IMG/VR virus record: IMGVR_UViG_3300037851_000502
Location: 1-53,620 of that record
DNA: 53,620 bases
Strand: one strand, 5' to 3'
Origin: a virus
The notes beneath the pieces are model-generated. The model was not told the origin of the DNA and made no database searches. It saw only the letters and a program-made list of their open reading frames with translations. A program made the position numbers and the translations under genes. Shown one piece after another: positions 16,328-42,511 of the stretch. Numbering within the stretch: position 1 is the stretch's first letter; each line of letters opens with the position of its first letter.

Positions 16328-16391
16328 ATTCCCTTTCTTTGCCCATGCAGCCGGGCGTAATGACAGGTGCGGGTGGTGCAGTGGTAGGAGT

Positions 16392-21249: not shown

Positions 21250-21269
21250 GGGCCGAAGGGATTTTGATA

Positions 21270-24233: not shown

Positions 24234-24251
24234 GTTTACAAAGGAGAACCG

Positions 24252-25009: not shown

Positions 25010-25018
25010 GAGAGCCGT

Positions 25019-25381: not shown

Positions 25382-25384
25382 CTT

Positions 25385-25540: not shown

Positions 25541-25541
25541 G

Positions 25542-26498
25542 ATGAATGAAAAAGACCGGTCAAAAGGAAAACAGGTAGGTCGTGTATTCTCCGGGTTCGC
25601 GCCATCGTCATTGGAGATGAAGCCCGACGAGTGCAAGAAACTCTGTGAAAAGCTGGGCAAAGAATATCTTCCGGGATATGAGGACCGGGTTCTTTCGTAC
25701 ATCACGACAACGGAAACCCCGGACCGGGCGGGGGACATTGTGCGGGCGGCAGGGGCGAATCTCGAAGCATACATGAAAAATCCTCAGGTGATGTATGCCC
25801 ATCAGCATGACCAGTATCCTGTCGGATGTGCATTGAAAATATGGATTGACAAAGCACAAAAGAATATCCCCGCATGGGCGATGTTCCTTGACAATCGGGT
25901 CGATTCCAGCGGGCGGTCGGACCTGGTTTACAAGTTCGCAAAATCCCGGATGATGCCATGTTGCTCAATCGGATTTATGCCTACGAAAACGAATCGGCCA
26001 TCCAGTGCGGAAGAGCGGACCAAACTCGGACTTGGTGACTGGGGCATGGAATATCTTGAATGGGACTACCTTGAATTTTCCCCGTGTTCAATACCGATGA
26101 ATCCCGATGCGATGCAGAACGCTTTGAAGTCCGCGAATTTCAAAGCTGTGTCTTTTGCTCAGGAAGATTTCGACCTCATGGTGAAGATTGCTTTCATGGA
26201 CCAGAATCTCGTGGACATTCTGGCCAACAGCTTAAAGCCTTTGAAGACGGTAAGCATACCAAATACCCAGGAAGAGGTACCTGTTGCAACCACCGAAGTG
26301 GAGGACACTGAAATGAAACAGCTTAACGAAACCATGCTCGAACTCGTGAAGACAATCAATGACCTCGTAACGGCGACGAATGCCATGTCCAAGCGTGTGG
26401 ACGATACTCTTGCGTCACTGAAATCCTCCCCCGGCACCCCCGGCGGCGCGGATGAAGGAAAAGCGCTGGAGGATATGTACTTCCGTATTGGACTGTGA
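25542..26498 (+). CDS. Prohead protease (HK97 S78-like) with C-terminal scaffold-like tail
   Basis: ITTTETPDRAGDIVRAAGANLEAYMKNPQVMYAHQ. The ATG at 25542 is preceded by AAGGAGA (track start 25452). The C-terminus is helical and acidic. Confidence 0.8.
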   Translation: MNEKDRSKGKQVGRVFSGFAPSSLEMKPDECKKLCEKLGKEYLPGYEDRVLSYITTTETPDRAGDIVRAAGANLEAYMKNPQVMYAHQHDQYPVGCALKIWIDKAQKNIPAWAMFLDNRVDSSGRSDLVYKFAKSRMMPCCSIGFMPTKTNRPSSAEERTKLGLGDWGMEYLEWDYLEFSPCSIPMNPDAMQNALKSANFKAVSFAQEDFDLMVKIAFMDQNLVDILANSLKPLKTVSIPNTQEEVPVATTEVEDTEMKQLNETMLELVKTINDLVTATNAMSKRVDDTLASLKSSPGTPGGADEGKALEDMYFRIGL

Positions 26499-26542
26499 CA
26501 GATAAATAAGAAGAGCCCAACGAAATCTGAAAGGATTTTAAA

Positions 26543-27850
26543 ATGGAACTGAATCTCGAACAACTGGAAGGCAAGCTCAAGGAATACAAGGGCTCCATCC
26601 AGACGGAAATTGACAATGTGAAGAAATCTGTGGACGGATTCGACGGCAAGGCAAAAGCCGCAGTCGAACCGCTCCAGAAAGACCTGTCGGACGTCCAGAA
26701 AACGCTGAACTCCATCCAGGAGCAGCTCAAAGTCGTGCAGGCCCAGCACGTCCCCGGCCTCAAGGACGAAGCAGCGAAAAAAGGTTTTGACCTCGGCGCT
26801 TTCGTTGGCGGAATCATGCGGGCCCGGCTCGGAATTTCCGACCCGTGGAAGTTCGCTGGACATGAAAAAGAGATGTGCGAACAGTCCATGAAGGTCCGTG
26901 ACGCCAGCAACTACGCCAGCGATGGAACTGCCGGCGGATACTTGGTCCCCGATGAGGCCCTTGCCCCCGTCGTGGACACCACCCTTGCCGAAATGCCCAT
27001 CATGGGTCTTGGCCCGACAGTCATTCGCGGTCTGGTCGGCCCCCTGCCGATTCCGCGGAAGACCGCCCGTTCGACCGGGTACATGGTCGGAGAGAATACC
27101 GCTCCCGCCCGCTCTGGTGCGACGTATGGGCTCACCACCCTTTCCCCGCACAAAATCGGAGCACAGACCGTGCAGAGCAATCGCCTGGCTTACCAGAGCC
27201 GCGGCGTGAGCGACCAGATAATCCGTCAGGATATCACGGATGCAATCGCCCTTAAGCTGGAATCCCAGCTTATCGACGGCGATGGCACCGGGTACAATCT
27301 GAAGGGTCTCGTGGCCCATACCGGTTTCACGTCAAGCGGCGTGACGGTTTCCGGGGCACGTTTCCGCGTGAAGGATGCAAGCTCGATGATTGCCGCAATC
27401 GAAGCGGCGGACGAGCTTCGCGCCGGCGGGCGGTACGGTTTCCTCATGCGCCCGCGCGTGAAGTGGGGCCTGAAGAAAGAGCGTGCGGAAATGTATTCCG
27501 GCCAGTCCGCAGACAACGGCGTTCCGATTATCGTCAATGCGCCCATCATGACTGATGACCAGCTTGCGGCCGCTCTCGGGTACAAGGTCGCGTCGACCTC
27601 TCTCATCGATTTCACATCGGCGACGCTGTCTCCGGTGTACTTCGGCAACTGGGCACAGCTCTACGTCGGTATCTGGAGGGACTTCTGGATAAAGGCGTCG
27701 GATGTGGCAGTGGACTCAAGCGGAAACAGCATGATGACCCAGGACAGCACGCTCATCGTCGCTTTCCAAGAAGTCGATTGCGCGGTTATCCGTGAAACGG
27801 CGTTCACCAAGGTCACCGGCGCGGACAGCACGGAAGCCAACTGGTCGTAA
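26543..27850 (+). CDS. Major capsid protein (HK97 fold)
   Basis: Follows the protease; N-terminal coiled-coil delta-like region; GGYLVPDE motif; 435 aa. Confidence 0.85.
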   Translation: MELNLEQLEGKLKEYKGSIQTEIDNVKKSVDGFDGKAKAAVEPLQKDLSDVQKTLNSIQEQLKVVQAQHVPGLKDEAAKKGFDLGAFVGGIMRARLGISDPWKFAGHEKEMCEQSMKVRDASNYASDGTAGGYLVPDEALAPVVDTTLAEMPIMGLGPTVIRGLVGPLPIPRKTARSTGYMVGENTAPARSGATYGLTTLSPHKIGAQTVQSNRLAYQSRGVSDQIIRQDITDAIALKLESQLIDGDGTGYNLKGLVAHTGFTSSGVTVSGARFRVKDASSMIAAIEAADELRAGGRYGFLMRPRVKWGLKKERAEMYSGQSADNGVPIIVNAPIMTDDQLAAALGYKVASTSLIDFTSATLSPVYFGNWAQLYVGIWRDFWIKASDVAVDSSGNSMMTQDSTLIVAFQEVDCAVIRETAFTKVTGADSTEANWS

Positions 27851-27893
27851 ACTGAATTGAAACCAAAACGAGAGCCCTGAAAGGTCCGATTAT

Positions 27894-28334
27894 ATGAGAT
27901 ACGGTAAACTTGTTGAAGACGTCAAAACCGTCGTCATGCACCCGGGAATCGGGCAGGTGACAGCGGCTACCGCCACGTATGGCGGCGCGGGCGTCGATAC
28001 CCAGGGATTCAGGGACGCCAAAATCGTGCTTAATGTTGGTACGTGCTTGGGCCCGACGACTCTCGGGGTCGAAATCTGCGAGAACAGTGCGAACTCTCCG
28101 GTCGGGTCCATCCCGATTACCGGCGCGGCGTTTCTGGTATCGGCAACGAATGACCAGAATGTCCTCGTCGGGAATGTCCAGGGTACGAAGCGGTACCTGT
28201 TTGCCAGAGCGGTAGCGAGTGCCCCGGGTTCACCGACCATCACCGGTCTGGGAATCACGGCGGAACTCGGCGACGCGGTCTCGGCTCCTGTGAGCCAGTC
28301 GCAGACTGTCGCATTCGACGTCGGGGTTCAGTGA
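27894..28334 (+). CDS. Hypothetical head protein (possible decoration/cement)
   Basis: Position directly after the capsid gene; small Gly/Ala/Thr-rich protein. Confidence 0.5.
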   Translation: MRYGKLVEDVKTVVMHPGIGQVTAATATYGGAGVDTQGFRDAKIVLNVGTCLGPTTLGVEICENSANSPVGSIPITGAAFLVSATNDQNVLVGNVQGTKRYLFARAVASAPGSPTITGLGITAELGDAVSAPVSQSQTVAFDVGVQ

Positions 28335-28393
28335 TTTTGTTTCTGGGGGAGGGGCCTTCGGGCTCTTCCCCTATGTAAAGAGGAAAAGTAACC

Positions 28394-29236
28394 ATGTTTC
28401 TATCAAGCTATAATCGTTTAATCAGGTATCTGTCTCGCGGGGACAATGCGATGACGGACAATGAAAAGAATCGTCGGGATATCCTGGTGTGGTTGCCCGC
28501 GGTCTCAGCACAGATTGAGCGGTATCTCAATCGTTCCCTGACAATCGAAAGCAGGACGGAATATTTCGATGTGAACTTCAATACGAAAGAATTTTTCCCT
28601 GCGGCCATACCCATTATATCCGTGACAAGTCTGTACATGGATTCATCGGGTAAGTTCGACGGGAGTTCTGAGTCTGAAATCGAGTCGGATGACTATGTGA
28701 TAGGGGTTGAAGACAGGTCAATAATTTATCCCTTTGGTTTTGGATGGACGGCACGAAGGTCTGTCCGTTTGATATACACCGCGGGGCTTGCATACGACGG
28801 GGTAAAGAGCACGTATGCGATAACCATTTCCTCTGGTTCGTTTGCAACCGGGACCTATTGCATAGGTGAATCAAGCGGGGCGGTCGGCCTGATAACCACT
28901 GGTGGAGCAACTTCGATAATCGTCGAAGTGCTCTATGGAAAGTTTTTAGCGGGGGAAACGCTTCACTCGCATACGACGGAAGCCGCGACAGAATCGGAAT
29001 CAGGTGTCGCGGTACTGGATACAAAAACGAGGGAAGCCCTTTGTGAATCCTACCCGGAAATCACTACTGCCTGTGAAATACAGACCCGGTATATGTGGCA
29101 TAATAAAATGGGCTTCGAGAACATCGGCACACAGCAGAACGGCGAAAGCACCCGCCGCGGGGTGTCCTCTGATTTTGAGTTCCTGCAGCCGGAAGCCATT
29201 GCCATGCTTCAGATGCTCAGTCGAAAAGTCGTATGA
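28394..29236 (+). CDS. Head-tail connector (gp6-like N-terminal domain) protein
   Basis: ILVWLPAVSAQIERYLNRSL...EYF resembles the gp6-like adaptor pattern; SD AAGAGGAAAAG. Confidence 0.5.
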   Translation: MFLSSYNRLIRYLSRGDNAMTDNEKNRRDILVWLPAVSAQIERYLNRSLTIESRTEYFDVNFNTKEFFPAAIPIISVTSLYMDSSGKFDGSSESEIESDDYVIGVEDRSIIYPFGFGWTARRSVRLIYTAGLAYDGVKSTYAITISSGSFATGTYCIGESSGAVGLITTGGATSIIVEVLYGKFLAGETLHSHTTEAATESESGVAVLDTKTREALCESYPEITTACEIQTRYMWHNKMGFENIGTQQNGESTRRGVSSDFEFLQPEAIAMLQMLSRKVV

Positions 29237-29823
29237 TAACCTTCACAGTAAAGACAGATTTCTTGAAAAAGGCATTGGAGACAAAGGGCCTCCATATCCT
29301 GAAGGCTATGAAGCGCGGGATGCAACTCGGGATGTATAAATTTGAGGCCGAGATTGAACGGACGCAGCTTGTTGGACGGCCTGGTTTAAAACGAGGTTCT
29401 GGCAACCTTGCAAAAAGTTTCATAGTAGAAACACAAGAATATGGGAAATTTGATTTTTTGGTTAGGCTTGCATCGAGATCAAAGTATGCTGCAATACATC
29501 AATTTGGAGGGCGGATAGTTCCTCGAAATGCACGGGCGTTGACAATTCCTGTACACCATGATGCGAAGAACCATTTCGCTCGGGACTTCGGGGACAACCT
29601 AATCTTTCTTCCACCGAGAAACGGGAAGCCTCCAATGCTTGCCCGTCATAAGTTCGGCGGGGGTAAAAAATTACGCTCTGTTGGTCTGGAAATAATGTAT
29701 GTACTTTTGAAATCTGTATATATCCCGAAGCGATTACGAATACTCGAAGCGTATAAACGAGTTGGGCCAGCGATGATAGGAGACGAGATATTTAAACAAA
29801 TGCGAATAGCTTTACAAAAATAA
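29233..29823 (+). CDS. Virion morphogenesis / head-tail joining protein
   Basis: GRPGLKRGSGNLAKSF ... KYAAIHQFGGRIVPRNARALTIP resembles the Mu gpG / tail-completion family pattern. Confidence 0.55.
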   Translation: MITFTVKTDFLKKALETKGLHILKAMKRGMQLGMYKFEAEIERTQLVGRPGLKRGSGNLAKSFIVETQEYGKFDFLVRLASRSKYAAIHQFGGRIVPRNARALTIPVHHDAKNHFARDFGDNLIFLPPRNGKPPMLARHKFGGGKKLRSVGLEIMYVLLKSVYIPKRLRILEAYKRVGPAMIGDEIFKQMRIALQK

Positions 29824-29834
29824 AAGGAGAGCCG

Positions 29835-30515
29835 ATGAAGAGAGTCATTTCTTTTTCCCTCTGGGGTGATAATCCCGGATACTGCATTGGCGCGGTGGAA
29901 AACGCCAAGCGGGCCCCGAATTTTTATCCGGGATGGGTCTGCCGGTTTTACTGTGATACGAAAGTCCCTGAAGAATATGTCAAACAGCTTCTTGATTTGG
30001 GGTGCGAGGTCTATAAACGGCCGGAATCAATCGACAATCTCGGGTTGTATTGGAGATTCGAGCCGATGTTTGATGACCCTGATATCGAGCGGTTTATCGT
30101 CCGGGACACTGATTCACGGTTGAACGGCCGTGAGTCCGAGGCCGTGTATGAGTGGATTGAAAGCGATTTACCGTTTCACCTCATCCGGGATAATCCTGGG
30201 CATAATATTGAGATTTGCGGCGGGCTTTGGGGGAGCAAGGCGCGGGTCATTCCAGAATTTCCTATTCTGATGAAGGCTTGGCTTGAGACACTTGTCCCGG
30301 ACCAGAAGAACCCGCGCGGAATTTACCACGGCACGGACCAGCTTTTCCTTTGCAAATATATATGGCCGTTTATAAAGAACTGCCACATGGCCCATGACGA
30401 ATATTTTCAGTATACCGGGAGAGAGCGACCGTTCAAAACGAAACTCCGGAGAGATGGTTATGTCGGTATGGTTTACACGACGATGGATGCCGACCGGGTG
30501 GAGGTGGTACAATGA
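29835..30515 (+). CDS. Putative glycosyltransferase (DXD-type)
   Basis: FSLWGDNPGY, YPGWVCRFYCD, acidic RDTDSR, GGLWGSK. SD AAGGAGAGCC. Confidence 0.5.
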   Translation: MKRVISFSLWGDNPGYCIGAVENAKRAPNFYPGWVCRFYCDTKVPEEYVKQLLDLGCEVYKRPESIDNLGLYWRFEPMFDDPDIERFIVRDTDSRLNGRESEAVYEWIESDLPFHLIRDNPGHNIEICGGLWGSKARVIPEFPILMKAWLETLVPDQKNPRGIYHGTDQLFLCKYIWPFIKNCHMAHDEYFQYTGRERPFKTKLRRDGYVGMVYTTMDADRVEVVQ

Positions 30516-31243
30516 ACATCATTCTCATGGCCCCGACATATAAACGCTGGAAGACTTCTCTTCCCGTTTTTATTACCTCAGCTTTACAAACAGCGAAAGA
30601 CCCTGATTCGATAAAGTTCTGTTTCTGTGTCAATGCGAAAGACCAAGGCACGCAGCAATTTCTTTTGAGTTATCAATGGCCTGCGAATGTAGAGCATGAA
30701 ACGCTTATCGAAAACCTCGTTCAACCGAATTTGTCAATGTATTTCAACATGATGGCAGAGCGTTCCCGGTTTGTCGATGAGGGTTGTATATTGACCATGC
30801 TCGGGGACGATATGGAATTTGTCACCCCAGGATGGGATATTGCAATCAAAAGAGAAATCGAAACGCATAAGGGTATCGGGGTTTTCTGGTGCGATGATGA
30901 TTACATCGCGCACGAGCAACTCCCAGTGAATCTTTTCGTCACATGGAAATTCTGGAAGGCAACGAGGAAGCCGTTCATGTGTCCATTGTTCGCTGCGGAT
31001 ATGATAGATGTCGTGTGGTATCTCGTGGGCAAGCTCACGCATACGCTTCACTATCTTGAAGACACGGTTATCAGACACAATCACAGCACCCGTGTTCCTG
31101 CGGCGATGTATGATGAGACCTTTCAGAGACTTCGGCCGCTCCAGCGTTCGGCAAGCAATAAGCAGAACGGTAAAATCGCTTCGATATATGCTTCGATAGT
31201 TGCTGGAAATCTTATCGAAGAGGGTATGGGTTCATGGACATAA
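30512..31243 (+). CDS. Putative GT-A fold glycosyltransferase
   Basis: N-terminal IILMAPTYKR strand, LGDDMEF acidic motif. Confidence 0.45.
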   Translation: MNIILMAPTYKRWKTSLPVFITSALQTAKDPDSIKFCFCVNAKDQGTQQFLLSYQWPANVEHETLIENLVQPNLSMYFNMMAERSRFVDEGCILTMLGDDMEFVTPGWDIAIKREIETHKGIGVFWCDDDYIAHEQLPVNLFVTWKFWKATRKPFMCPLFAADMIDVVWYLVGKLTHTLHYLEDTVIRHNHSTRVPAAMYDETFQRLRPLQRSASNKQNGKIASIYASIVAGNLIEEGMGSWT

Positions 31244-31812
31244 AATTATCCATACTTATTTGCACATTGCCGACAGTGTATCGGATGAATTGCCTCCAGT
31301 CATTGCGGGATTATCTCCAATCCCAGGCAATTCAGGAAGGGTCGGTTGAAGTATTGACGGATGATACTCCGGGGATTCCTATCGGCAAGAAAAGAAATGA
31401 CCTTGTTCATGCTGCAACCGGGGAGTATGTCTGCTTCGTCGATGATGACGACCGGGTATCGAAGAACTATATCCGGAATATTCTTTCAGCGGTTAAAAGT
31501 TCCCCGGATGTAGTCGGGTTGAACGGGGTGATATTTTTCAGCAGCAATTATCCGAGGAAATTCATCCATTCGATACAGTGCAGCGGATGGGTTGACGCTC
31601 CCCCGGTATACTATCGGACGCCGAATCATTTGAACCCTATCCGTCGGGAATTGGTCCTTGATTGCCCGTTCAATTCGCTTTCAAGTCATGGCGAAGACAG
31701 GGAATTCTCAGATGATATTCGTTCGCTCTTGAAAAAAGAGGTGTATGTCGATTCGCCGCTGTATTATTACATGAGTTCATTGGCCCTATGCGTAAATCGA
31801 TACTTGAAATAA
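31234..31812 (+). CDS. Family 2 glycosyltransferase
   Basis: LSILICT..., GKKRNDLVHAATGEYVCFVDDDD. Confidence 0.75.
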   Translation: MDIKLSILICTLPTVYRMNCLQSLRDYLQSQAIQEGSVEVLTDDTPGIPIGKKRNDLVHAATGEYVCFVDDDDRVSKNYIRNILSAVKSSPDVVGLNGVIFFSSNYPRKFIHSIQCSGWVDAPPVYYRTPNHLNPIRRELVLDCPFNSLSSHGEDREFSDDIRSLLKKEVYVDSPLYYYMSSLALCVNRYLK

Positions 31813-31895
31813 TTGCCATTATCGCTGCGTTCGTGGTAGCTGCGGTAATTGGTTTGTATTTTGCAACCCTTTACGTCAAATGAAGGAGAGCCGAG

Positions 31896-32984
31896 ATGAA
31901 ATTCTTTAATATCGACCAGCATATCAGCGTGATTGCTGATATGAAAGGTATCTTCGAGAAGCTGGGCCATTCTATTCACGATATCTGTCTGTCAGGCCAT
32001 GCGCCCATTATGGGAAGAAAAAGGGATTCTATTCCTATGCTTGACGGAGACAAATGGTGTGGCATGGTCCAGAGAAAAATATGGGATGAGTTTTATGATA
32101 CATACGCGGCGGAGTTAGAGCAATTCGATGGATTTATTACCTGTTACCCCCCGCTTTTTGCGTATCTGTATAAACGGTTCAAGAAACCAATCATCATAAA
32201 TATTCCTATCCGGTATGAGTATCCGTGTCAATCTTCTGCGGATGACTGGAATGCTTTTAATGACTTTCTAATCGAGGGTATTGACGAGGGTAGATATTAT
32301 CTCGTGGCGAACAATGTCTATGACCAGAAATATACAGAGCTTTTCCTCAATCGAAAAGTCGAGTATATCCCATCCCTCTGCGAGTACACAAAGGCCATCT
32401 ATAAACCGACACGCGATGAAGTTCTGTATTACTTTCCGTGCTCGATTGATGAACTCGACCCGGTGTTATTCCGGCGCAAGCACGAGTCGCTTCCTTTCGG
32501 GCATACCTGGCAGGACGTGGCGAATTTCAAGGCCGTTGTCCATTTTCCCTATAACGTGTCAACGATGTCCACGTTCGAGCACTACATGGCGGGCATTCCG
32601 ATACTCTGCCCTCATCGGGAATTTGCCCTCGAATTATATCGGAAAAAGTATCGGATAATGGAACAGAATTCATGGGTATCGACTTTCGGCCGACCGGCGG
32701 GATCCGTGATTAAACGGGATTGGCCGCTTGGATTTGACCCGAATGACTATACGAATGAGCAGTCCATGAATTACTGGATGCATTACGCCGATTATTGGAA
32801 CAATGACGCCATGCCGGATATCATTCATTTTGATTCCTTTCAACGTCTGCACCAGCTCGCCCGTTCACTTCAGTGGAATGTCATCCACAACATGATGATG
32901 AAGACGAATGAGAAGCGGAAGACCGTCGTATATACGCGATGGGGTGTGCTTTTGGAAAGGATTAAAAATGACCATCACCTGTGA
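31896..32984 (+). CDS. Hypothetical protein, possibly a GT-B-like glycosyltransferase
   Basis: Robust ORF with SD GAAGGAGAGCC. The C-terminal VVHFPYNVSTMSTFEHYMAGIPILCP resembles the GT-B E..G.P motif; the function call is weak. Confidence 0.4.
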   Translation: MKFFNIDQHISVIADMKGIFEKLGHSIHDICLSGHAPIMGRKRDSIPMLDGDKWCGMVQRKIWDEFYDTYAAELEQFDGFITCYPPLFAYLYKRFKKPIIINIPIRYEYPCQSSADDWNAFNDFLIEGIDEGRYYLVANNVYDQKYTELFLNRKVEYIPSLCEYTKAIYKPTRDEVLYYFPCSIDELDPVLFRRKHESLPFGHTWQDVANFKAVVHFPYNVSTMSTFEHYMAGIPILCPHREFALELYRKKYRIMEQNSWVSTFGRPAGSVIKRDWPLGFDPNDYTNEQSMNYWMHYADYWNNDAMPDIIHFDSFQRLHQLARSLQWNVIHNMMMKTNEKRKTVVYTRWGVLLERIKNDHHL

Positions 32985-34398
32985 TTTTGAATCCGGGAGT
33001 GAAATATACCGGGACGGATGGAAGGCCATCGAATTCGCAAAGTCAATTCCTGAAACGGTGCACCCTGAAAAAACGGATATCCATTTTTATTGGCGGGAGC
33101 CGCTTCCTTTCGGCAGGAAACAAGCGGCGTGCATAAAGTCGGCAATTGTTTCTCAAAATCTTGACAATGTTCGTATTCACTTGTGGTCAAACTCAGACCT
33201 TTCAAGGAATGAATGGGTACAGCCGATTGAGCGACATATTTATTTGCACCACTATGATGCAAAGGTAGAGGCCCGGGGGACGCCGCTTGAAGGATGGGCG
33301 GGGCTTGATAAAGATGATGAGTTATGCTGGCTTGGCGGGGACCTATTCAGGCTTCTTATCCTTTACAGATACGGTGGGGTTTATGTTGATTGTGATGTCC
33401 TTCTTCTCCGGGACCTTGCGCCGTTACTCGGACAGGAATTCCTGTATCAATGGGGTACGGAACTCGATAAGATGAACGGCGCGGTCATGAGACTTTTCGC
33501 AAAGTCGAAGACTGCCGAGAATCTTTTGACTATGATTCCGCGTATGCCCGCGGGCGTGAAGAGCACTGACTGGGGTTCGACGTTATACGGAGAAGTCAGA
33601 AAGTTCGACAAATCTTTCACAGTGTTTCCTTGTGCTTTCTTCAATACCGAATGGCAGCTATACATCAACATGGGCGAATCTGCACATCCTTTTAAAAAAG
33701 GAAATGACTCGCACTGGGATTTCGAAGGTGTATTTGCATGGCACTGGCATAATAAATGGGATGTACCGATTGAAGAGGGGTCGAAGTTCCACCGTCTTGA
33801 AGCAAGGATAAATGAGAAATATGCCCATGGTTTTGATGTTATGGTCGACAAAGAGCATCGGCACCTCGGCGGGAACTATGGCGGCGGGGACCCGGGGACA
33901 TTTTATCCAGAGTTATGGCGTCATATCATTGATACATACTCGATAAAGAGTGTTCTTGATGTCGGGTGCGGGGAAGGTCGTGCGGTGGCTTTTTTCCTCT
34001 GTCTTGGTATTCCTGCCGTGGGGATAGACGGAATGCAGGGGAATATCGATAAGTGCCCGAATACCTGCCGGAAACACGATATCACGACAGGGTCTTACCG
34101 GGATATCGGGGATTATGACCTGGTTTGGTGTTGTGAAGTCGTGGAACATATCGAAGAAAGGTTCGTCGATAACTTGATAAAGAGCCTTTCGAACGGGCGG
34201 TATGTGTGTATGACCTTCGCTCCCCCTGGTATGCGCGGGTATCACCATGTGAATTGTCAACCGGCAGAGTATTGGATTTCAAAGATGGACGCTGCCGGAT
34301 ATCAATACCTTGACCGTGAAACAAAGACCATGGCTGAATTCGGGAATGCCCGGTTTAAAGAGAATGGTCTGTTTTTTGTGCGGAGGGAAAATGTATAA
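32968..34398 (+). CDS. Bifunctional GT32-like glycosyltransferase / class I SAM-dependent methyltransferase
   Basis: GDLFRLLILYRYGGVYVDCDVLLL (GT32 DXD region). C-terminal VLDVGCGEGRAV (motif I) and DLVWCCEVVEHI. I prefer the ATG at 32968. Confidence 0.7.
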   Translation: MTITCDFESGSEIYRDGWKAIEFAKSIPETVHPEKTDIHFYWREPLPFGRKQAACIKSAIVSQNLDNVRIHLWSNSDLSRNEWVQPIERHIYLHHYDAKVEARGTPLEGWAGLDKDDELCWLGGDLFRLLILYRYGGVYVDCDVLLLRDLAPLLGQEFLYQWGTELDKMNGAVMRLFAKSKTAENLLTMIPRMPAGVKSTDWGSTLYGEVRKFDKSFTVFPCAFFNTEWQLYINMGESAHPFKKGNDSHWDFEGVFAWHWHNKWDVPIEEGSKFHRLEARINEKYAHGFDVMVDKEHRHLGGNYGGGDPGTFYPELWRHIIDTYSIKSVLDVGCGEGRAVAFFLCLGIPAVGIDGMQGNIDKCPNTCRKHDITTGSYRDIGDYDLVWCCEVVEHIEERFVDNLIKSLSNGRYVCMTFAPPGMRGYHHVNCQPAEYWISKMDAAGYQYLDRETKTMAEFGNARFKENGLFFVRRENV

Positions 34399-35224
34399 CT
34401 TTGATTTTTCCTCTGAAGTTTTTCATGGAGATATGTTCGGGGACATCGCTGATGTGGCGATACGGGCAGAGCCGACAATGGACCAGGCGCAGAAGATACT
34501 TTCCGGCCCGGGGGTGATTTTCTGTAAAACGGATTACCTTGATTATCTTTGGAATATCCTTGAGCAACAGAATGAAAATCAGTATGTGCTTATTACCCAC
34601 AACTCTGATTTTCATATCGACGCTGAAAGATATTCTCGTCGTATTCATATCAAAAAATGGTTTGCTTTGAACGTGGACCACATCGATGAGGACCTTATCC
34701 CTATCCCCAGTGGCATGGAGAGACCCCTTGGCGGGGGTTACTCCAGTGATAAAACGGTTCTTGCGAAACGATTGCAGGAACCCAGAGTGCGGCAGAACCT
34801 CGCATACATGAATCACAATGCGAACAATAATCACGGGGCCCGGGATTTTATCACGGAAAACCTTAAAAATCAGCACTGGGTAACGTGGCGGCCGCACGGG
34901 CAATCTTTTTATGACTTCATCAAGAATTGTTATGAGCATGATTTTGTAATCTCCCCCGAGGGAAACGGAATTGATTGTCATCGGACGTGGGAAGCCCTTT
35001 GGATGGGCGCGATTCCGGTAGTCAAAGAAAGCTATTTGACAAGCTCCTTCAGCTCTTTGCCGATGCTCATTGTCGAAGACTGGTCGATAGTTACCGAAGA
35101 ACTTTTGACTATCGTAAAAGAAGATTATGACAAAAAAGAATTTAACTATGAGAAATTGACCTTTTCATACTGGAAAAACCGTATACTATCTGAGAAGGAA
35201 CATCTGTGTATAAAGAGCGAATAG
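34391..35224 (+). CDS. Exostosin (GT47)-like glycosyltransferase
   Basis: ISPEGNGIDCHRTWEALWMGAIPVV resembles the exostosin C-terminal motif. ATG at 34391 with a GGAGGGA SD. Confidence 0.5.
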   Translation: MYNFDFSSEVFHGDMFGDIADVAIRAEPTMDQAQKILSGPGVIFCKTDYLDYLWNILEQQNENQYVLITHNSDFHIDAERYSRRIHIKKWFALNVDHIDEDLIPIPSGMERPLGGGYSSDKTVLAKRLQEPRVRQNLAYMNHNANNNHGARDFITENLKNQHWVTWRPHGQSFYDFIKNCYEHDFVISPEGNGIDCHRTWEALWMGAIPVVKESYLTSSFSSLPMLIVEDWSIVTEELLTIVKEDYDKKEFNYEKLTFSYWKNRILSEKEHLCIKSE

Positions 35225-35790
35225 ATTTTGAGTTCGTAAAGCAGCTTTACTCTGTCGGGGAGAGCGGGGAAGGTTCGCTTTTTCTTAATGCTGCGGAGCC
35301 AATGAACCTCCAGCTCGATTTCATGGAGTCCGTCCTTCTCGAATATAAGCCGAAAACTATCCTTGAAATCGGTACGCATAAGGCTGGATTCGATTATTTC
35401 TGCTGCCTCTGTCTCCCGGAAGTAAAAATCACGACGATTGATATCGCTTCATGGAGCAAAGACGCGGTGAAAATGGTCAATGATAGATTCGAGGATAGGG
35501 TAGAGCATATCTGCGGTGGGTCCCATGAGACGATGGAAGCCGAAGCGTTCAAAAATCGTCGGTATGAAATGGCATATGTTGACGGATATCATGAATACAG
35601 CCACTCACTCCGGGATATTATGAACTGTATTAATATCACTAAGGTCCCCTTATTGCTGATAGATGACGCAGGAAGCTATGTCATGGACAGGGTATTTGCT
35701 TTATTAAAGACGACAAATCCAGAATATACGTTTATAAAACGCACCCCGGATGGCGATGAGAGAAAATTGACGCTGATTGGAAAGCTATGA
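35206..35790 (+). CDS. Class I SAM-dependent methyltransferase
   Basis: ILEIGTHKAGFDYF (motif I), AYVDGYHEYS; GTG start with GAAGGAA. Confidence 0.6.
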   Translation: MYKERIDFEFVKQLYSVGESGEGSLFLNAAEPMNLQLDFMESVLLEYKPKTILEIGTHKAGFDYFCCLCLPEVKITTIDIASWSKDAVKMVNDRFEDRVEHICGGSHETMEAEAFKNRRYEMAYVDGYHEYSHSLRDIMNCINITKVPLLLIDDAGSYVMDRVFALLKTTNPEYTFIKRTPDGDERKLTLIGKL

Positions 35791-36416
35791 GACAAGTACC
35801 AAATAGCGAAAAATTCAGTGACGGCGGGCGCGGTATTGAGGTACCTATTCTTCAGGAATTTCTAAAAGAGGTTTCAGGAAAGCGGATAGCTGACTTTGGG
35901 TGCGGGGGGAAGGGTGAAGGTAAGCCGAAAACATTTGCCCAGTATCCGGTGGACGTTCTGAAAAACAATGAAATCCATGTGTATGATTGCCAGGACATTG
36001 AGGGTGTTCCGGGGTTCTTTTGCCATAAGCACGATTTGACTGATGCGATCGACCTCCCCGATTACTTTGATATGGCAACTTGCATTTCAGTCATCGAGCA
36101 TACTCATCATGACGTATACCGGAATAAAGTCGTGACGAATGCGGATGCGCTTTGCATAAATACAATGCTTTCCTCTTTGGTAACCGGCGGGGAATTGCTT
36201 GTCACCGTGCCTTCGAGCAGTTATTCATACAACCCGGCAGAATGGATACACAGCTATTCGCAGCCGGAACTTTATGCATTCAAGCCGGATAAAATTCGCT
36301 GGTTCATGTTCCATAAAATATGGTTTGAGCTTGAACCCGGGGACAGTCTTATCGATAAGCATGTCGGTGATATTATACAGGTGGCAGCACTATACTTTAA
36401 AAGGAGAGCCGTATGA
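35787..36416 (+). CDS. Class I SAM-dependent methyltransferase
   Basis: IADFGCGGKG (motif I), CISVIEHT; ATGA coupling at both ends. Confidence 0.6.
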   Translation: MRQVPNSEKFSDGGRGIEVPILQEFLKEVSGKRIADFGCGGKGEGKPKTFAQYPVDVLKNNEIHVYDCQDIEGVPGFFCHKHDLTDAIDLPDYFDMATCISVIEHTHHDVYRNKVVTNADALCINTMLSSLVTGGELLVTVPSSSYSYNPAEWIHSYSQPELYAFKPDKIRWFMFHKIWFELEPGDSLIDKHVGDIIQVAALYFKRRAV

Positions 36417-36982
36417 GTTTTATGCAACCGGATTTCGAGAGAGACAGATATGAGGGGCAGATGAACCCGGAGGAGAGGCGTCTTTTATATGAGACCGTTA
36501 TCGCTCAAAAGCCGGAAGTCGTGATGGAGGTCGGGACATGCCGGGGCGGAGGTACGACGTATTTTATTTCCTGCGCCTTGAACAATCTCGGGCAGGGCGT
36601 TCTCTACACGGTTGAAAATAACCCCGATTTTTTCAACTGGGCGCTTTCTCTGTATTCGAAAGAGGGTCCTTTGCATGACCTTGGCCCGTATGTGAAATTC
36701 AACTTCGGGAACAGTCTCGAAGTATATCCGCCGATTATTCACGAACTCGGCAAGGTAGATATCGCGATGCTTGACAGCGGGGAGGATTCAATGCAGACGC
36801 TATGGGACTTTGCGCTCATGCGGCCGTTTATTCCTGTCGGCGGGTGCCTGATTCTCCATGACTGGGACAACGGGAAGACGGATTACATTCGGCCTATCGT
36901 GAACAATGATGCGGACTGGCTTGTTGAAAAAGTAGTTCTCGGGCTTGCCGTCGTGAGGAGGGTCAATGATATCCACAAGTAA
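36413..36982 (+). CDS. Class I SAM-dependent methyltransferase (O-methyltransferase-like)
   Basis: VMEVGTCRGGGTTYF (motif I), AMLDSGED. Confidence 0.55.
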   Translation: MSFMQPDFERDRYEGQMNPEERRLLYETVIAQKPEVVMEVGTCRGGGTTYFISCALNNLGQGVLYTVENNPDFFNWALSLYSKEGPLHDLGPYVKFNFGNSLEVYPPIIHELGKVDIAMLDSGEDSMQTLWDFALMRPFIPVGGCLILHDWDNGKTDYIRPIVNNDADWLVEKVVLGLAVVRRVNDIHK

Positions 36983-38120
36983 AAAGACCTTTGGTCTTAC
37001 GATGATTGTCGGGCCGAATGACGCCGACGATTTACGGCGATGTCTTTCCAGCTTTCCCGCGCGGGAAATCTTTAACCAGATATGCCTTGTCTATACTACC
37101 AGTGACGAGGCCGTGGTAAAGGCGTGCAAAGAACTCGGGGACGTTACGGCATATTTTCCGTGGACGAGTGAACGATACCCTCACGGAAATTTCGGCGGGG
37201 CAAGGAATGCCGCAGTGGAGCTTTGCACGACGGACTATTGGATGTGGCTCGATTGTGATGATATCTTTTATCCGGATTCTGTAAAGGCCTTTGAGGATAC
37301 CCTGCGGATAATCAACCGATATGATTTTGATATTCTCGTAAATCGGTATGTACTTTCCGAGGTAGACGGAAAACCGAGGCACACGCTTTCCCGGGAGCGG
37401 ATAGTCAAACGGTCTTCTGGTATTTGCTGGAAGTTCCCGGTGCATGAGCAATTGACATGTACCGCGGAGAGCCGGGTAAATGCAGACCTTCGTGGTTTGG
37501 ATGTTATACACAGGCCGACAAAACCGTATGCGGTATCCTCTGCGAGAAACTTGCAGATACTTGAGCATGAGTTTTTCCGGAGAAATTGCCCGAAGCATTT
37601 TAAATATTACTATGCACGGGACCTGATATCGGCAGGGCTTCGGCTTGCGGCAATTCCGATATTGGTCGGGTATATTGACTCCTCCCTCGGGGACGATATC
37701 AACCTGTATGAATCTGCTTGTGAATTGGTGAATCACTATCTTTACGACGGGGATTCAATACGAAATGAAACCGTCCCACTTGCTGAAAAGTATGTCCGCA
37801 TTGCTTTACAGTGTCATCCTGAAATGGCGGAGCCGTATGTATATCTCGGGGATATTTTTCTTTCAAGAGGGGAATTAAGATTAGCGGAGCACCAATACAA
37901 GGCAGCGATGCAAAAAACATTCGGTTCAGGCCGGATGCAAGACGTGAGATACTACGAGGAAATCCCGGCCGTTCGGCTTACCGAATTGAACAGTCAACTT
38001 GGACGGAACGAAGAAGTCTTATGGTATTCGAAAATCGCAATGGAACACGGACAACGGGCCGAGTCCGTATTGTCCGCCCGTAAAAAAGCAATTGAAGAGC
38101 TGGTGAAGGAACTTGTATGA
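36966..38120 (+). CDS. Family 2 glycosyltransferase with C-terminal TPR-like repeats
   Basis: LTMIVGPNDAD..., WMWLDCDD (DXD), C-terminal EPYVYLGDIFLSRGELRLAEHQYKAAMQ. Confidence 0.65.
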   Translation: MISTSKKTFGLTMIVGPNDADDLRRCLSSFPAREIFNQICLVYTTSDEAVVKACKELGDVTAYFPWTSERYPHGNFGGARNAAVELCTTDYWMWLDCDDIFYPDSVKAFEDTLRIINRYDFDILVNRYVLSEVDGKPRHTLSRERIVKRSSGICWKFPVHEQLTCTAESRVNADLRGLDVIHRPTKPYAVSSARNLQILEHEFFRRNCPKHFKYYYARDLISAGLRLAAIPILVGYIDSSLGDDINLYESACELVNHYLYDGDSIRNETVPLAEKYVRIALQCHPEMAEPYVYLGDIFLSRGELRLAEHQYKAAMQKTFGSGRMQDVRYYEEIPAVRLTELNSQLGRNEEVLWYSKIAMEHGQRAESVLSARKKAIEELVKELV

Positions 38121-38617
38121 GTGGCATTTCAGCCTATGATGATATTATTGAGGCCGTGTTATGGGGGCTGGTCCAGATAAAGACTTCCTCCGGATACAAC
38201 ACGACTATCAAACATGCGTATGACCCCGAAGTCAGCATCGATGAGGTCCTGGAGTATCCGTCAGTGCTATTAGATGAGGGTAGTGAGGATTGTGCGAACT
38301 CGAATATCGGGAGTCATTTGCAGACAGGGGGGAACGAAGCCGGGTTACATAATTCCTTTGACCTATCGCTGCATTGCTGTCTGAATGAAGTCAATAATGC
38401 AAGGGAAGCCCGAAATAAAATCAAGGCGGATATTCAAAAGTATTTCGGTTTACATCCGAGGATACCTAATTCATTTGGCGTTGACACGGCATTCAATTGC
38501 TTTTACCGCGGGGCGACTCCGTGGGGGGTGGATAAGCAAAAACCTTTGACCGGGATTACTGTGGATATCCGCGTATGGTATCGGCAGAAACTAACGGACC
38601 CGACAACAACCATTTAA
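38117..38617 (+). CDS. Putative tail completion / tail terminator protein
   Basis: Position immediately upstream of the tube gene; size. Confidence 0.45.
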   Translation: MSGISAYDDIIEAVLWGLVQIKTSSGYNTTIKHAYDPEVSIDEVLEYPSVLLDEGSEDCANSNIGSHLQTGGNEAGLHNSFDLSLHCCLNEVNNAREARNKIKADIQKYFGLHPRIPNSFGVDTAFNCFYRGATPWGVDKQKPLTGITVDIRVWYRQKLTDPTTTI

Positions 38618-38632
38618 CAGGAGGAATCTGAT

Positions 38633-39580
38633 ATGTCTTTCATCACTGTGAAAAGGACCCTTGGCTTTAAGCTGGAGGGGACCCCGTATACGGCTGAAAC
38701 TTTGGTCGTGACTGATTACAATGTTCCGGCGTTCAACATTTCGTATGACCCTGATATCCAGACGTACGCTCGCCGGATAGCGCGCGGTGACTACACGAAG
38801 GACCCGTCAATCGCCGGAAAACGGTCAATCACTATCACGTTTTCCCACGATGTAACATGGTCCGGGGCTGCCGGGACCGCCCCTTCGTGGTTCAAGTGCC
38901 TCCAGGCCTGTGGAGGAAAAGAGCAGTCCTTCGGCACCTTCAGGACGGTCATGCCTCACGCGGACTATTCCAACGTCCCCGCAACCATCGAAGTTGTGGA
39001 AAAGGACGATACGGGTGCCCAGCTCGTCATAAAGGGCCACGGATGCATGGGGAACCCGAAAATGGTTGTTGATTCGGTAGGGCAGCCTATGCGGATTGAC
39101 TACGAGTTCAAGGGCGTGTTTAACGGCGTCGTGGATCGCGCTGCTGCCTCCATCCTGGTTCCGACAGGGTTCGATACCCCATTGCCGGAGGGCGTGCTTA
39201 CAGCCACGATGACGGCCTTTGCGGACAACCTGACCTTCGATAAGGTTACAATCGACTGGGGCAACCAAATCGAGCTTTATACGGACCCCAGCAAGGGCCA
39301 GGGACTCTCCGGTGCCCGCGTGGTTGACCGCAACCCAAGCGTTGAAATCGACCCGGATATGGTTCTTCTTGCCACGAGCAACCACTACCAGCGTCAGATA
39401 TCCAATACCACGGGGGCCGTGGCGTTCAATGTAGGGAACCATTTCCTCATTTCCGCTCCCGCCGGCCAGCTTATCCAGGGCATGAAACCCGGGGACCGGG
39501 AAGGGCATGTGACGAATACCCTGAAGTTTGAGCTGAAACGGTCTGTCGGCAACGATTCGATAACCATCAAACATTGGTAA
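38633..39580 (+). CDS. Major tail (tube) protein
   Basis: Gene order (before the chaperone and tape measure), SD AGGAGGAA, and a hairpin follows it. Confidence 0.6.
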   Translation: MSFITVKRTLGFKLEGTPYTAETLVVTDYNVPAFNISYDPDIQTYARRIARGDYTKDPSIAGKRSITITFSHDVTWSGAAGTAPSWFKCLQACGGKEQSFGTFRTVMPHADYSNVPATIEVVEKDDTGAQLVIKGHGCMGNPKMVVDSVGQPMRIDYEFKGVFNGVVDRAAASILVPTGFDTPLPEGVLTATMTAFADNLTFDKVTIDWGNQIELYTDPSKGQGLSGARVVDRNPSVEIDPDMVLLATSNHYQRQISNTTGAVAFNVGNHFLISAPAGQLIQGMKPGDREGHVTNTLKFELKRSVGNDSITIKHW

Positions 39581-39616
39581 AAGGACCTTATGGCGGGATA
39601 AAACGGAACCACCCCG

Positions 39617-39641
39617 GGAAGGATAACGGCTCTCTCCTTCC
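39617..39641 (+). terminator. Possible attenuator/terminator hairpin after the tube gene
   Basis: GGAAGGA-N11-TCCTTCC followed by the T-rich CCGCCTTTCTTT. Confidence 0.3.
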
Positions 39642-39687
39642 TCCCGCCTTTCTTTAAACGCCGAGAGCCGAAGCAAGGAGAGCCTGT

Positions 39688-40176
39688 ATGAGTGAAATGA
39701 AGGATATTGGATTCGATGAGGAGATGAAAAAGAAGCTCGATTCTTTTTCAGCAATCCAAGTCGATGCGGAATTTCGGTACATTCCGAAGGTGTACCGGGA
39801 AAAGGACGCTTCGGGGAATTACAAAGTACCAAAGGACCTTTGGCCTGTTTTCCGTCTTCGGGGAATCACCGGGGCTGATTTGATGATGATAGGGGATGAA
39901 TTGAAATACACCATCGACACGGACGGCAAGGTTGCTATTCCTAACCAGACCGGGCGAATGGCTGCGTTGACGTGCAAATACTGTATCCTTGGGTGGAGCA
40001 ATTTTCGAACGAGTGACGGTAAGGAAATCGGGCAGCCGCGGAAGGACCCGACGCTCGGGTGTCTTGTCAGTGAATCCCTCGGGGTTATTTCCGCCCCGCT
40101 CATGTTCGAATTATCGAATGTGATTGTCGGCGAAGGTCGGATGACCGAGGAAGAGTTGTTGGGTTTAGGATATTAG
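39688..40176 (+). CDS. Tail assembly chaperone (short, G-like form)
   Basis: Position between the tube and tape measure genes; slippery site near its end. Confidence 0.7.
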   Translation: MSEMKDIGFDEEMKKKLDSFSAIQVDAEFRYIPKVYREKDASGNYKVPKDLWPVFRLRGITGADLMMIGDELKYTIDTDGKVAIPNQTGRMAALTCKYCILGWSNFRTSDGKEIGQPRKDPTLGCLVSESLGVISAPLMFELSNVIVGEGRMTEEELLGLGY

Positions 40177-40514
40177 CCGGGTTACATGCGGGAGTATGGA
40201 AGGAAAAATTCAGATGCTCCTCATGCGCGGAAAACAAGACACTGAAAAAGTCGTGGGGCTGTGACAATGGGACGAGTGGCGAACCCGCATTCGTTGAAGA
40301 CCATGAGGGAATACGATACCGGTATTGGAGATGTCCGATTAAATACATTCCGATGTCGGTATTACATTTTTTCTCTGAGTATTCTTATTACAAGAATTTT
40401 CCGAGTGCGCCGATGCCGAGGAAGCAGGATATGTCCGTGAGGTTTTATTTGTCAATGCAGTATTACGAAACAAAACTGGTAGAGAACATGCGGCAACTAA
40501 AGGACCGGAGATAA
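39688..40514 (+). CDS. Tail assembly chaperone long form (G-T-like) via -1 frameshift at 40161-40167
   Basis: Manual translation of the -1 frame from 40167 gives 115 codons with no stop (RILAGLHAGVWKEKFRCSSCAENKTLKKSWGCDNG...YWRCPIKY...MRQLKDRR). It ends 4 nt before the tape measure ATG. Confidence 0.6.
40161..40167 (+). promoter_or_regulatory. -1 programmed frameshift slippery heptamer G_GGU_UUA
   Basis: X_XXY_YYZ in the zero frame, 7 nt before the G-like stop. The -1 frame stays open to 40514. Confidence 0.65.
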
Positions 40515-40517
40515 ACC

Positions 40518-42266: not shown

Positions 42267-42269
42267 AAA

Positions 42270-42509: not shown

Positions 42510-42511
42510 AT

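Follow-up and report, generated by a model that had tools for sequence, protein, structure and literature searches.

A glycosyltransferase and methyltransferase block in the head-tail operon of an uncultured tailed phage and its possible role in glycosylation of virion proteins

Why ten enzymes that transfer sugars and methyl groups should lie among the head and tail genes of a tailed phage is the question raised by the locus studied here. The DNA, called the window below, is the whole stretch of 53,620 nucleotides of the IMG/VR virus record IMGVR_UViG_3300037851_000502. It represents an uncultured tailed phage with a genome GC content of 47%. The locus is a block at 29835-38120 that is filled by ten plus-strand open reading frames (ORFs), numbered O1 to O10, all of which encode glycosyltransferases (GTs) or methyltransferases (MTs). 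An earlier note, written from the letters alone, had described ten co-oriented and tightly coupled genes with about 6-7 GT domains and four class I S-adenosylmethionine (SAM) MT domains. The ORF map bears out the first part of this description, and profile searches together with AlphaFold2 (AF2) models searched by Foldseek bring the domain total to seven GT domains and four class I SAM MT domains, the latter in the O5 fusion, O7, O8 and O9. The GT and MT folds are supported by Pfam and PHROG matches, by profiles of relatives and by the models. We propose, with a probability of about 0.6, that the enzymes of the block attach an O-methylated glycan to virion proteins in the cytoplasm, late in infection.

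Coupling and enzyme families of the ten genes

The junctions from O1 to O10 measure -4, -10, +83, -17, -8, -19, -4, -4 and -17 nt, so that eight of the nine overlap by 4-19 nt and a single gap of 83 nt is left between O3 and O4 (the starts of O5 at 32968 and of O6 at 34391 were taken from a public gene caller). Both ends of the block are tied to structural genes in the same manner, O1 beginning 11 nt past the upstream head-completion gene and O10 sharing a 4-nt ATGA overlap with the first tail gene. The window has five copies of the extended Shine-Dalgarno (SD) motif AGGAGAGCC, all on the plus strand and directly 5' of a start codon, at 25019, 29835 (O1), 31896 (O4), 36413 (O9) and 39688; three of these sites are in the block and two at structural genes. 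The expectation by chance is 0.27 occurrences, and none of 100 shuffles reached five. The late-gene SD and the ATGA/overlap coupling that had been claimed for the block are thus both present. In the region 24000-43000, terminator-like sites occur about as often as expected by chance (24 against 20) and none of them brackets the block, while promoter-like sites are modestly above shuffles, scattered over both strands, and do not delimit it. Judged from this layout, the block would be co-transcribed with the structural genes. Its GC content (0.44-0.49) equals the genome average and therefore gives no sign of recent import.

O10 (36966-38120), the last gene of the block, encodes a GT2 domain at about residues 8-204 (Pfam GT2, 2.8e-8) followed by a helical region with a tetratricopeptide repeat (TPR) motif at about residues 270-320. 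Its profile matches the GT domain of GmaR (1.9e-19), the S-glycosyltransferase SunS of SPbeta (1.7e-17) and the ThuS-like 7msk (5e-12) in the PDB, and the best match to a GT2 enzyme of polysaccharide or teichoic-acid synthesis is at 6.7e-5. The TPR region (about 271-317) matches the consensus TPR and the TPR of OGT; there is also a weak TIGR02521 TPR match at 267-319, and only about one clear repeat can be recognised by sequence. GmaR is the Listeria flagellin N-acetylglucosamine (GlcNAc) transferase, with the same order of GT and TPR, and a role in binding of its protein substrate has been proposed for the TPR (PMC9638930). Bacteriocin peptides are the targets of SunS-type enzymes (PMC6405829). 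O10 therefore appears, by sequence, to belong with GmaR, SunS and ThuS to a protein- or peptide-directed GT2-TPR group, and is a candidate for a protein-directed GT that initiates the glycan. Since it is the GT closest to GmaR and SunS and carries the TPR motif, it is the natural candidate for transfer of the first sugar, on which the other six GTs would then build.

The likeness to these enzymes covers both architecture and mode of action. GmaR and SunS/ThuS have an N-terminal GT2 domain followed by TPR or helical repeats, as O10 has, and their substrate, a folded protein or peptide, is glycosylated directly in the cytoplasm. They are, however, cellular or prophage enzymes that place one sugar on flagellin or a bacteriocin, whereas O10 lacks the antirepressor domain of GmaR and is accompanied by six further GTs, which implies an oligosaccharide and not a single sugar.

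O6 (34391-35224) is assigned to GT114, the GT-B family of A075L type that was formerly called 'exostosin-like'. A profile of O6 with four orthologues matches the structures of A075L from chlorovirus PBCV-1 (8avq, 8q8i and 8asa) at 4.5e-52 over residues 42-268, and the single sequence of O6 matches A075L at 7e-27 over residues 62-267. S72-D73, N141, R151, N192 and R198 of O6 align with Ser72/Asp73, Asn148, Arg158, Asn202 and Arg208 of A075L, and the catalytic and donor-binding residues are kept in four of five orthologues, the copy of relative L002 having G73 and K198. A075L, the founder of GT114, is an inverting beta-xylosyltransferase that transfers xylose from UDP-xylose (UDP-Xyl) to fucose in the core of the chlorovirus major capsid N-glycan; Asp73 is the catalytic base, and Arg158, Arg208 and Asn148 bind the phosphate or donor (PMC11571054). 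By these alignments O6 is a member of GT114 with intact catalytic residues. In Pfam, only RXYLT1_C was matched above threshold (1e-6).

O1 (29835-30515) encodes a soluble protein of GT-A fold without any Pfam, PHROG or NCBIfam match, belonging to a family for which Pfam has no model. This family has 624 metagenomic homologues, and D91 and D93 of its D91-x-D93 motif are invariant. The AF2 model (pLDDT 97.2) retrieved only GT-A enzymes from the PDB with Foldseek (E about 4e-5, TM-score about 0.5), with Skp1 alpha-GalT (6mw5), domain 1 of PBCV-1 A64R (2p6w) and glycogenin at the top. The likeness to 2p6w (E 3.8e-5, TM-score 0.49-0.53, 14% identity) is at the level of the fold only. In its model, O1 resembles enzymes that act on protein-linked glycans.

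O4 (31896-32984) encodes a GT-B fold and likewise belongs to a family without a Pfam model, since none of its 564 homologues carries a Pfam domain. Of the significant PDB matches of its AF2 model (pLDDT 94.5) in Foldseek, the great majority are GT-B glycosyltransferases, including BshA (3mbo), natural-product GTs and the methylmannose-polysaccharide (MMP) mannosyltransferase 7qsg, together with a few UDP-GlcNAc 2-epimerases of GT-B fold (E about 6e-6, TM-score 0.4-0.57), and matches in BFVD are viral GT1/GT4-like proteins. The fold calls of O1 and O4 rest on AF2 models and Foldseek because PDB sequence searches with O1, O2 and O4, by single sequence and by profile, gave nothing.

O2 (30512-31243) is a divergent GT2-like protein of GT-A type with an invariant D99-D100. 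It matches phrog_14945 'glycosyltransferase' at 4e-10, and in its family of 172 members Pfam Glyco_tranf_2_3 was found in 9 of 41 (best 6.6e-8). O3 (31234-31812) is a short GT2 protein (Pfam Glycos_transf_2, 6.6e-8) that also matches phrog_14775 and phrog_8858 at 1e-28. O5 (32968-34398; the longest ORF would start at 32908) is a GT32-like, DXD-type sugar-binding GT (Gly_transf_sug, 6e-9) fused to a class I SAM MT (Methyltransf_11, 1.7e-6), and the two domains are encoded by separate genes in relative L002.

Among the separate MT genes, O9 (36413-36982) encodes a class I O-MT of the cation-dependent type (Methyltransf_24, 2.9e-12) whose profile matches O-MTs (YrrM, COMT-like) at 4e-8. Orthologues of O9 are present in relatives L002, L004, L011 and L090, and it is kept in the long forms of the cassette. 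O7 (35206-35790) encodes a class I O-MT (Methyltransf_24, 4.8e-6) that is rhamnosyl-O-MT-like by RMNT_CmcI (3.6e-3); no copy of it was found in L002, L004, L011 or L090, and none was matched in the 80 IMG/VR loci described below. O8 (35787-36416) encodes a class I SAM MT whose DUF268-like family is rare (29 relatives in 1.8 billion representatives); its own match is only a weak one to Methyltransf_23 (3e-3), while DUF268 is found in 20 and Methyltransf_11 in 14 of 24 relatives, and it was not found in the cassette relatives recovered. Both O7 and O9 give weak matches to rhamnosyl-O-MT models, and sugars are the presumed substrates of the MTs of the block.

No transmembrane-like segment was detected in the ten block proteins by a crude hydropathy test (19-residue Kyte-Doolittle mean, maximum 1.61), and by this test all ten enzymes look soluble. 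In addition, Pfam found no priming GT, flippase, ABC transporter, polymerase or membrane protein among the block ORFs or among the other scanned ORFs of the window. Sugar-nucleotide genes are likewise missing from both sets, as the earlier note had stated for the block. By its gene content the block does not look like a Wzx/Wzy- or ABC-type pathway for surface polysaccharide or seroconversion.

Conservation of the cassette in environmental phages

An IMG/VR scan with the O1 profile retrieved 425 viral contigs, and the loci examined are the best 80 of these 425. The major capsid protein (MCP) was also searched in IMG/VR, where a single-sequence pattern found nothing and a three-sequence alignment worked. 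In the close relatives L002/3, L004/5, L011 and L090 the same genes are found in the same order and at the same place, even though their MCPs are only 35-47% identical to that of the window. The identities to these relatives are 43-66% for O1-O5, 37-62% for O6 and O9 and 36-39% for O10, compared with 34-47% for the structural proteins (MCP, portal and adaptor). Most cassette enzymes are therefore as conserved as the structural proteins or more so, O10 being the least conserved of them.

All 23 IMG/VR loci with a window-type head have the order (terminase)-portal-MCP-adaptor-O1-O2-O3-(O4)-[variable 0.7-4.7 kb]-O10. Where the contig extends far enough, which is so in 8 of these 23 and also in L002 and L004/5, O10 is followed by the tube gene. 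O10 is always at the 3' end of the cassette in the relatives, so that the two ends of the cassette (O1-O4 and O10) are conserved and its middle is variable, differing in gene content between phages (L095-L118) and corresponding to O5-O9 in the window. This layout resembles a serotype-like diversification of the outer glycan.

The association of the cassette with head genes extends to unrelated head types. T4-like phages account for 12 of the best 80 loci and have O1, often with homologues of O6 and of the Methyltransf_24 (MT24) enzymes, about 1-2 kb from gp23 and the prohead protease; T4-like contigs with cassette homologues near gp23 are L093, L114, L115, L124, L125 and L129-L137. In the P22-like contigs L120, L165 and L166, O4/O1/O2/O3 lie between the large terminase and a P22-type portal, and in the P22-like L091 the genes between terminase and portal are O2/GT2/O1/O4/MT24/MT. 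L144 shows the terminase-side half of this P22-like arrangement. The terminase of L091 is 1166 aa long, with an intein inside.

One of the T4-like contigs, L093 (Logan SRR21398031, 1-13000), adds a GT10 fucosyltransferase, a GT25 enzyme, two sulfotransferases, an AGT-type DNA glucosyltransferase and an epimerase. Its toolkit is much larger and possibly includes the making of sulfated glycans.

A different GT/MT block lies right after the MCP gene in MW202524.1 (L006, 3147-11978), a podovirus-like genome from Manatee Spring. It contains a 762-aa 'beta4glucosyltransferase', gtA, a GT4-like gene, two MTs and a GT2, of which only the first gene is O10-like (29% identity). Among GenBank phages, Synechococcus phage S-SRM01, two huge uncultured phages and a further large record are the only ones in which O1 was found; O6 was found in one huge phage and a marine fragment, and O4 in none. 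The earlier note had called a block of this size unusual in such an operon. This holds for cultured phages, the families being nearly absent from GenBank phages, but not for environmental phages, in which 425 IMG/VR contigs carry a relative of O1. A limited literature search found no description of this cassette.

Candidate acceptors of the proposed glycan

The earlier note had left two alternatives side by side, a methylated glycan on virion proteins and remodelling of a host surface glycan. The first is favoured here because of the affinity of O10 to protein GTs, the membership of O6 in GT114 and the fixed position of the cassette between head and tail in 23 of 23 loci; we infer the protein acceptor, the sugars, the order of the steps and the biological role from these observations. 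Support for virion-protein glycosylation comes from several sides. No transmembrane segment and no protein resembling a lipid-carrier priming enzyme, flippase or polymerase was found. The block overlaps or abuts its structural neighbours and shares AGGAGAGCC with structural genes, with no terminator signal around it, and its layout has been kept although the MCPs are only 35-47% identical. Lastly, the same association with head genes is seen in the T4-like and P22-like lineages.

It seems plausible to hypothesize the following course of events. The block would be translated along with the head and tail proteins from one late transcript, and O10 would recognise a structural protein through its TPR region and transfer the first sugar to Ser, Thr or possibly Cys of an acceptor that may be the capsid subunit, the 146-aa protein encoded after the MCP gene or the tail tube. 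O1-O4 would then assemble the conserved core of an oligosaccharide, drawing on the nucleotide sugars of the host, and the enzymes of the variable middle (the GT32-MT O5, the GT114 enzyme O6 and the O-MTs O7-O9) would extend the glycan and cap it with O-methyl groups. The outcome would be a particle with a methylated glycan coat, the outer part of which varies among related phages. Such a coat could plausibly protect the particle from proteases, antibodies or lectin-like capture, or alter its stickiness or stability.

Candidate acceptors can be named among the proteins encoded just upstream. The MCP (26543-27850, plus strand) is of HK97 type (phrog_617, 2e-35; Pfam Phage_capsid), and its C-terminus (27800-27850) reads TGADSTEANWS. 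The corresponding motif [TS]G[AC][ED][ST]T[EK][AS]NW is common to the cassette-bearing clade (L002, L004, L010, L011, L012 and L090) and missing in four distant relatives without the cassette. Several MCPs of the clade also have a Ser/Thr-rich insertion in a surface loop (e.g. PANETGPTGTSTTSTTTSS), which is short in the window MCP. Motif and loop are possible glycan acceptor sites and are regarded here as a lead, not as evidence. The motif echoes the C-terminal glycosylation that has been reported for mycobacteriophages, as outlined in PMC12619734. A Ser/Thr-rich C-terminal tail of the mycobacteriophage kind was also looked for on the MCP and tube protein of the window and is not evident, only the short motif being present. 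The 146-aa protein (27894-28334, plus strand) is rich in Gly, Ala, Thr, Ser and Val, matches only phrog_5707 (unknown function) and is, from its position, a possible head decoration protein and a further candidate acceptor.

Several observations weigh against a virion acceptor. The block has no sequence similarity to the one phage system in which virion glycosylation is proven, the window MCP has no long Ser/Thr-rich tail and only a short loop, the acceptor sites named above are candidates, and co-transcription is read from the layout alone. The likeness of O1 and O4 to named enzymes is at fold level only (TM-score 0.4-0.57). Since UDP-xylose, which A075L uses as its donor, is rarely met in bacteria, O6 may use another sugar nucleotide. 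Many larger contigs hold O2-O1 pairs without a recognisable head gene nearby; few structural queries were used there, and such distant pairs are weak evidence either way. Finally, homologues of O1-O4-MT24-MT are carried by the Fibrobacterota metagenome-assembled genome (MAG) JAZDKP010000056 (L009, 10001-13210), next to three heptosyltransferases, GT4 and GT2 genes and an epimerase. By its gene content this looks like a locus for lipopolysaccharide (LPS) or another envelope glycan, and since the set is present there as well, the core enzymes are not intrinsically protein-specific.

The second alternative of the earlier note draws its main support from this bacterial locus, where O1, O4 and two MTs have homologues. 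In this alternative the enzymes would remodel a host glycoconjugate, either lipid-linked intermediates of LPS core or O-antigen or else flagellin, pilin or S-layer, and so block superinfection or keep the progeny from re-adsorbing to debris. GmaR, the best-characterised relative of O10, does glycosylate flagellin (PMC9638930), and large phages with members of these families also hold nucleotide-sugar genes typical of envelope-glycan clusters. The window further encodes a tyrosine integrase (1915-2754, minus strand; Phage_integrase, 2e-35), by which the phage may be temperate. Lysogenic-conversion genes are, however, usually expressed separately and located at module borders, whereas the block is placed centrally in the late head-tail operon, overlaps its neighbours, shares their SD and has no promoter or terminator signal of its own. 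Its capsid-adjacent position recurs in three unrelated head lineages, neither priming, flippase, polymerase or ligase functions nor membrane segments were found, and a surface change made minutes before lysis would have little time to act. Remodelling of the host is therefore considered unlikely.

Two further explanations remove the glycan from both the virion and the host surface, and we regard them as less probable still. The product could be soluble, for instance a glycocin-like glycopeptide or a free or lipid-bound methylated oligosaccharide with a role in lysis timing, signalling or interference with competitors. The likeness of O10 to the SunS/ThuS glycocin S-glycosyltransferases would fit this, as would the fold neighbour 7qsg of O4, a methylmannose-polysaccharide mannosyltransferase, by mycobacterial analogy. 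The single gap between block genes also holds a 31-codon ORF (31788-31883, plus strand, public gene caller) that overlaps the end of O3, but this ORF encodes a single hydrophobic helix, MRKSILEIIAIIAAFVVAAVIGLYFATLYVK, without a Cys/Ser acceptor pattern, and it is not conserved, the gap between O3 and O4 being almost nil in relatives. The ORF may encode a small membrane protein, or its call may be spurious. As it is the only small ORF of the block, a glycocin-type precursor peptide was rejected; no precursor peptide, protease or exporter gene was found, and the fixed position between head and tail would be left unexplained, which makes a soluble product quite improbable. Hypermodification of DNA, with the GTs glycosylating hydroxymethylated bases for evasion of restriction, is a frequent role of phage GTs (Pyle et al., bioRxiv 10.1101/2023.12.21.572611). 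The window does encode a C5-cytosine DNA methylase (260-1033, minus strand, at the genome end) and an 834-aa fusion of SNF2-type helicase motifs with an N6/N4 DNA methylase (14039-16543, minus strand), and the T4-like contig with the AGT-type DNA glucosyltransferase also has an O1 homologue. Yet neither a TET/5mYOX dioxygenase nor a dCMP/dUMP hydroxymethylase turned up in the scanned ORFs of at least 100 aa, seven GTs and four O-MT-type MTs exceed the need, no DNA role is known for the TPR-bearing protein-GT family or for GT114, and the block is in the structural and not the replication module. A role in DNA modification is hence very hard to credit.

Glycosylation of virion proteins by a virus-encoded enzyme set has its closest functional parallels in the chloroviruses and the actinophages. 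In the former, O-methylated sugars are found on the major capsid protein, A064R combines a GT-A, a further GT and a class I MT, A061L is an MT, and the glycans have a conserved core with a variable outer decoration (PMC9614988). The machinery for PBCV-1 Vp54 (A064R, A061L, A075L, A071R and A111/114R) consists of virus-encoded soluble cytoplasmic GTs, as is predicted for the block. The GT-MT fusion of O5 and the separate sugar-type O-MTs mirror A064R and A061L (PMC9614988), O1 has A064R domain 1 among its nearest folds at fold level, and the design of conserved ends and variable middle parallels the core and outer parts of the chlorovirus glycans. O6 is a true sequence homologue of A075L, but it is the only one of the ten block proteins with clear homology, and the cassette thus shares, by sequence comparison, only part of its descent with the chlorovirus set. 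PBCV-1, a giant double-stranded DNA virus, infects eukaryotic algae and has a double-jelly-roll capsid with N-linked glycans, whereas the window belongs to a tailed phage of HK97 type; chlorovirus genes are scattered, whereas the block is embedded in a morphogenesis operon; and chloroviruses are not known to use an initiator of the GmaR/SunS-type O-/S-glycosyltransferase kind, for which there is a candidate here.

The arrangement of the genes has its precedent in actinophages, for some of which the earlier note had cited capsid glycosylation. In Corndog (cluster O), the O-MT and GT genes gp35-38 lie inside a siphovirus structural operon (PMC4351075), and mycobacteriophages (Corndog, Che8 and other cluster F phages) have virion glycans on capsid and tail-tube subunits that act as a shield, according to the summaries of Freeman 2023 given in PMC12619734 and PMC11256854. 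Both cassettes combine GT and O-MT genes within the structural operon without sugar-nucleotide or export machinery inside. Corndog, however, has four genes between portal and protease, whereas the window has ten between head completion and tail, and its host is actinobacterial, which the host of the window phage apparently is not (GC 47%, weak hints of Fibrobacterota). Homology to Corndog gp35-38, the only such genes compared, was ruled out by blastp and phmmer, in which the best match to window proteins had an E of 0.024 and was to an unrelated protein. The precedent therefore holds for the architecture, the cassette being analogous and not homologous to the Corndog genes. Phage seroconversion clusters and the LPS or cell-envelope clusters of cyanophages also contain phage-borne GTs and sometimes MTs, as the window does. 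Those clusters differ in having lipid-linked or membrane substrates, usually membrane proteins (Gtr flippase-type, Wzy and acetyltransferases), and locations outside the structural operon, none of which was found in the window.

A wider reading is put forward tentatively, at somewhat short of even odds. Self-glycosylation of virions with methylated glycans could be a common and overlooked trait of environmental tailed phages, spread as a modular cassette (an O1-O4 core, a GmaR-like initiator and a swappable decorating middle) across at least three unrelated head lineages (HK97-type siphovirus-like, T4-like and P22-like) and sharing GT114 with giant algal viruses. While the architecture has precedent, the protein-directed initiator, the GT114 link to giant viruses, the conserved-ends and variable-middle design and the breadth across environmental phages would be new. 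If the wider reading is true, genes would have flowed between the glycosylation toolkits of phages and giant viruses, and the coat would diversify like a serotype.

Should virion glycosylation be correct, phage particles in lakes and sediments would routinely wear methylated glycan coats of their own making, which would affect adhesion to surfaces, survival against proteases and grazers and recognition by antibodies, and unexplained masses or densities in virome proteomics or cryo-EM could be glycan. For evolution, the cassette provides a concrete link between phages and the capsid-glycan enzymes of chloroviruses. The block also offers soluble GTs suited to bacterial expression, namely a GT114 enzyme, two families without Pfam models (O1 with 624 and O4 with 564 homologues) and a candidate protein-directed initiator, with a possible use in glyco-engineering of phage or protein particles.

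Flanking structural genes and the rest of the genome

The genes of the plus strand follow the order terminase, portal-MuF, protease/scaffold, MCP, adaptor, ten-gene block and tail genes, continuing with tape measure, large distal tail proteins, fibre and endolysin. The earlier note had placed the block between a head-tail joining gene and genes for tail completion and tube. The upstream flank agrees with this, the head-completion or connector genes at 28394-29236 and 29233-29823 (both plus strand) matching the head-tail adaptor phrog_442 at 3e-7, with weak Neck1 and Phage_tail_S matches. Downstream, the two tail genes at 38117-38617 and 38633-39580 (plus strand), the second for a putative major tail (tube) protein, are both conserved 3' of O10 in relatives. 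The labels 'tail completion' and 'tube' are nevertheless putative and purely positional, given by the place of 38117-39580 5' of chaperone-like and tape measure genes (tape measure at 40518-42266, plus strand), and neither 38117-40176 nor 42512-42934 has any PHROG or Pfam match even at E up to 1-10.

A portal fused to a Mu-F-like head morphogenesis protein (21264-24233, plus strand, 989 aa) has an extra C-terminal 'head protein' region; a weak Intein_splicing match for it stands in the precomputed Pfam list. The large terminase of the window (20083-21249) is unrelated to that of L004 (125-1600), while portal, MCP, cassette and tail genes are orthologous, which by sequence comparison is module mosaicism with a swapped packaging gene. 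A 140-aa ORF at 19686-20108 was considered as part of a split terminase and rejected, as it did not match the terminases of relatives.

The two ends of the window are a 127-nt exact direct repeat (1-127 and 53494-53620), and its public counterpart is a 53.5-kb metagenome contig (Logan SRR12687606), with a JGI entry as well. Because of the terminal repeat and the match to this contig, the window in all likelihood represents an entire phage genome of about 53.5 kb, assembled as a circle. No near-identical DNA to window 29000-39000 was found among GenBank phages, and the closest MCPs of cultured phages are those of cyanosiphoviruses, at 26% identity. The only match of the MCP profile in the genome collection was the cassette-bearing contig L090, which at 56.7 kb has the size of a phage genome and is binned in the Chitinivibrionales MAG JBAVGL010000332. 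This binning and the L009 locus, both in one phylum, are a weak hint of a Fibrobacterota host.

Replication and DNA-handling genes occupy the left 19 kb on the minus strand, where the library scan identified a family A DNA polymerase, an archaeo-eukaryotic primase (AEP) and UvrD and SNF2 helicases; neither an attachment site nor a tRNA was found in the window. Between these early genes and the late plus-strand arm, an AT-rich stretch at 19001-20000 (GC 0.33 against about 0.47 for the genome), at which coding strand and GC skew flip, is likely a divergent promoter or origin region. Adjoining the DNA polymerase gene are three consecutive minus-strand genes (8367-10061) similar to gp34, gp33 and gp32 of cyanophage Pam3, after which the Pfam families are named (1e-60, 8e-28 and 9e-27). 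At the other end of the genome, the gene at 51503-52075 (plus strand, 190 aa) after the endolysin matches an enoyl-CoA hydratase/ClpP-like PHROG at 5e-9, an odd function at that place.

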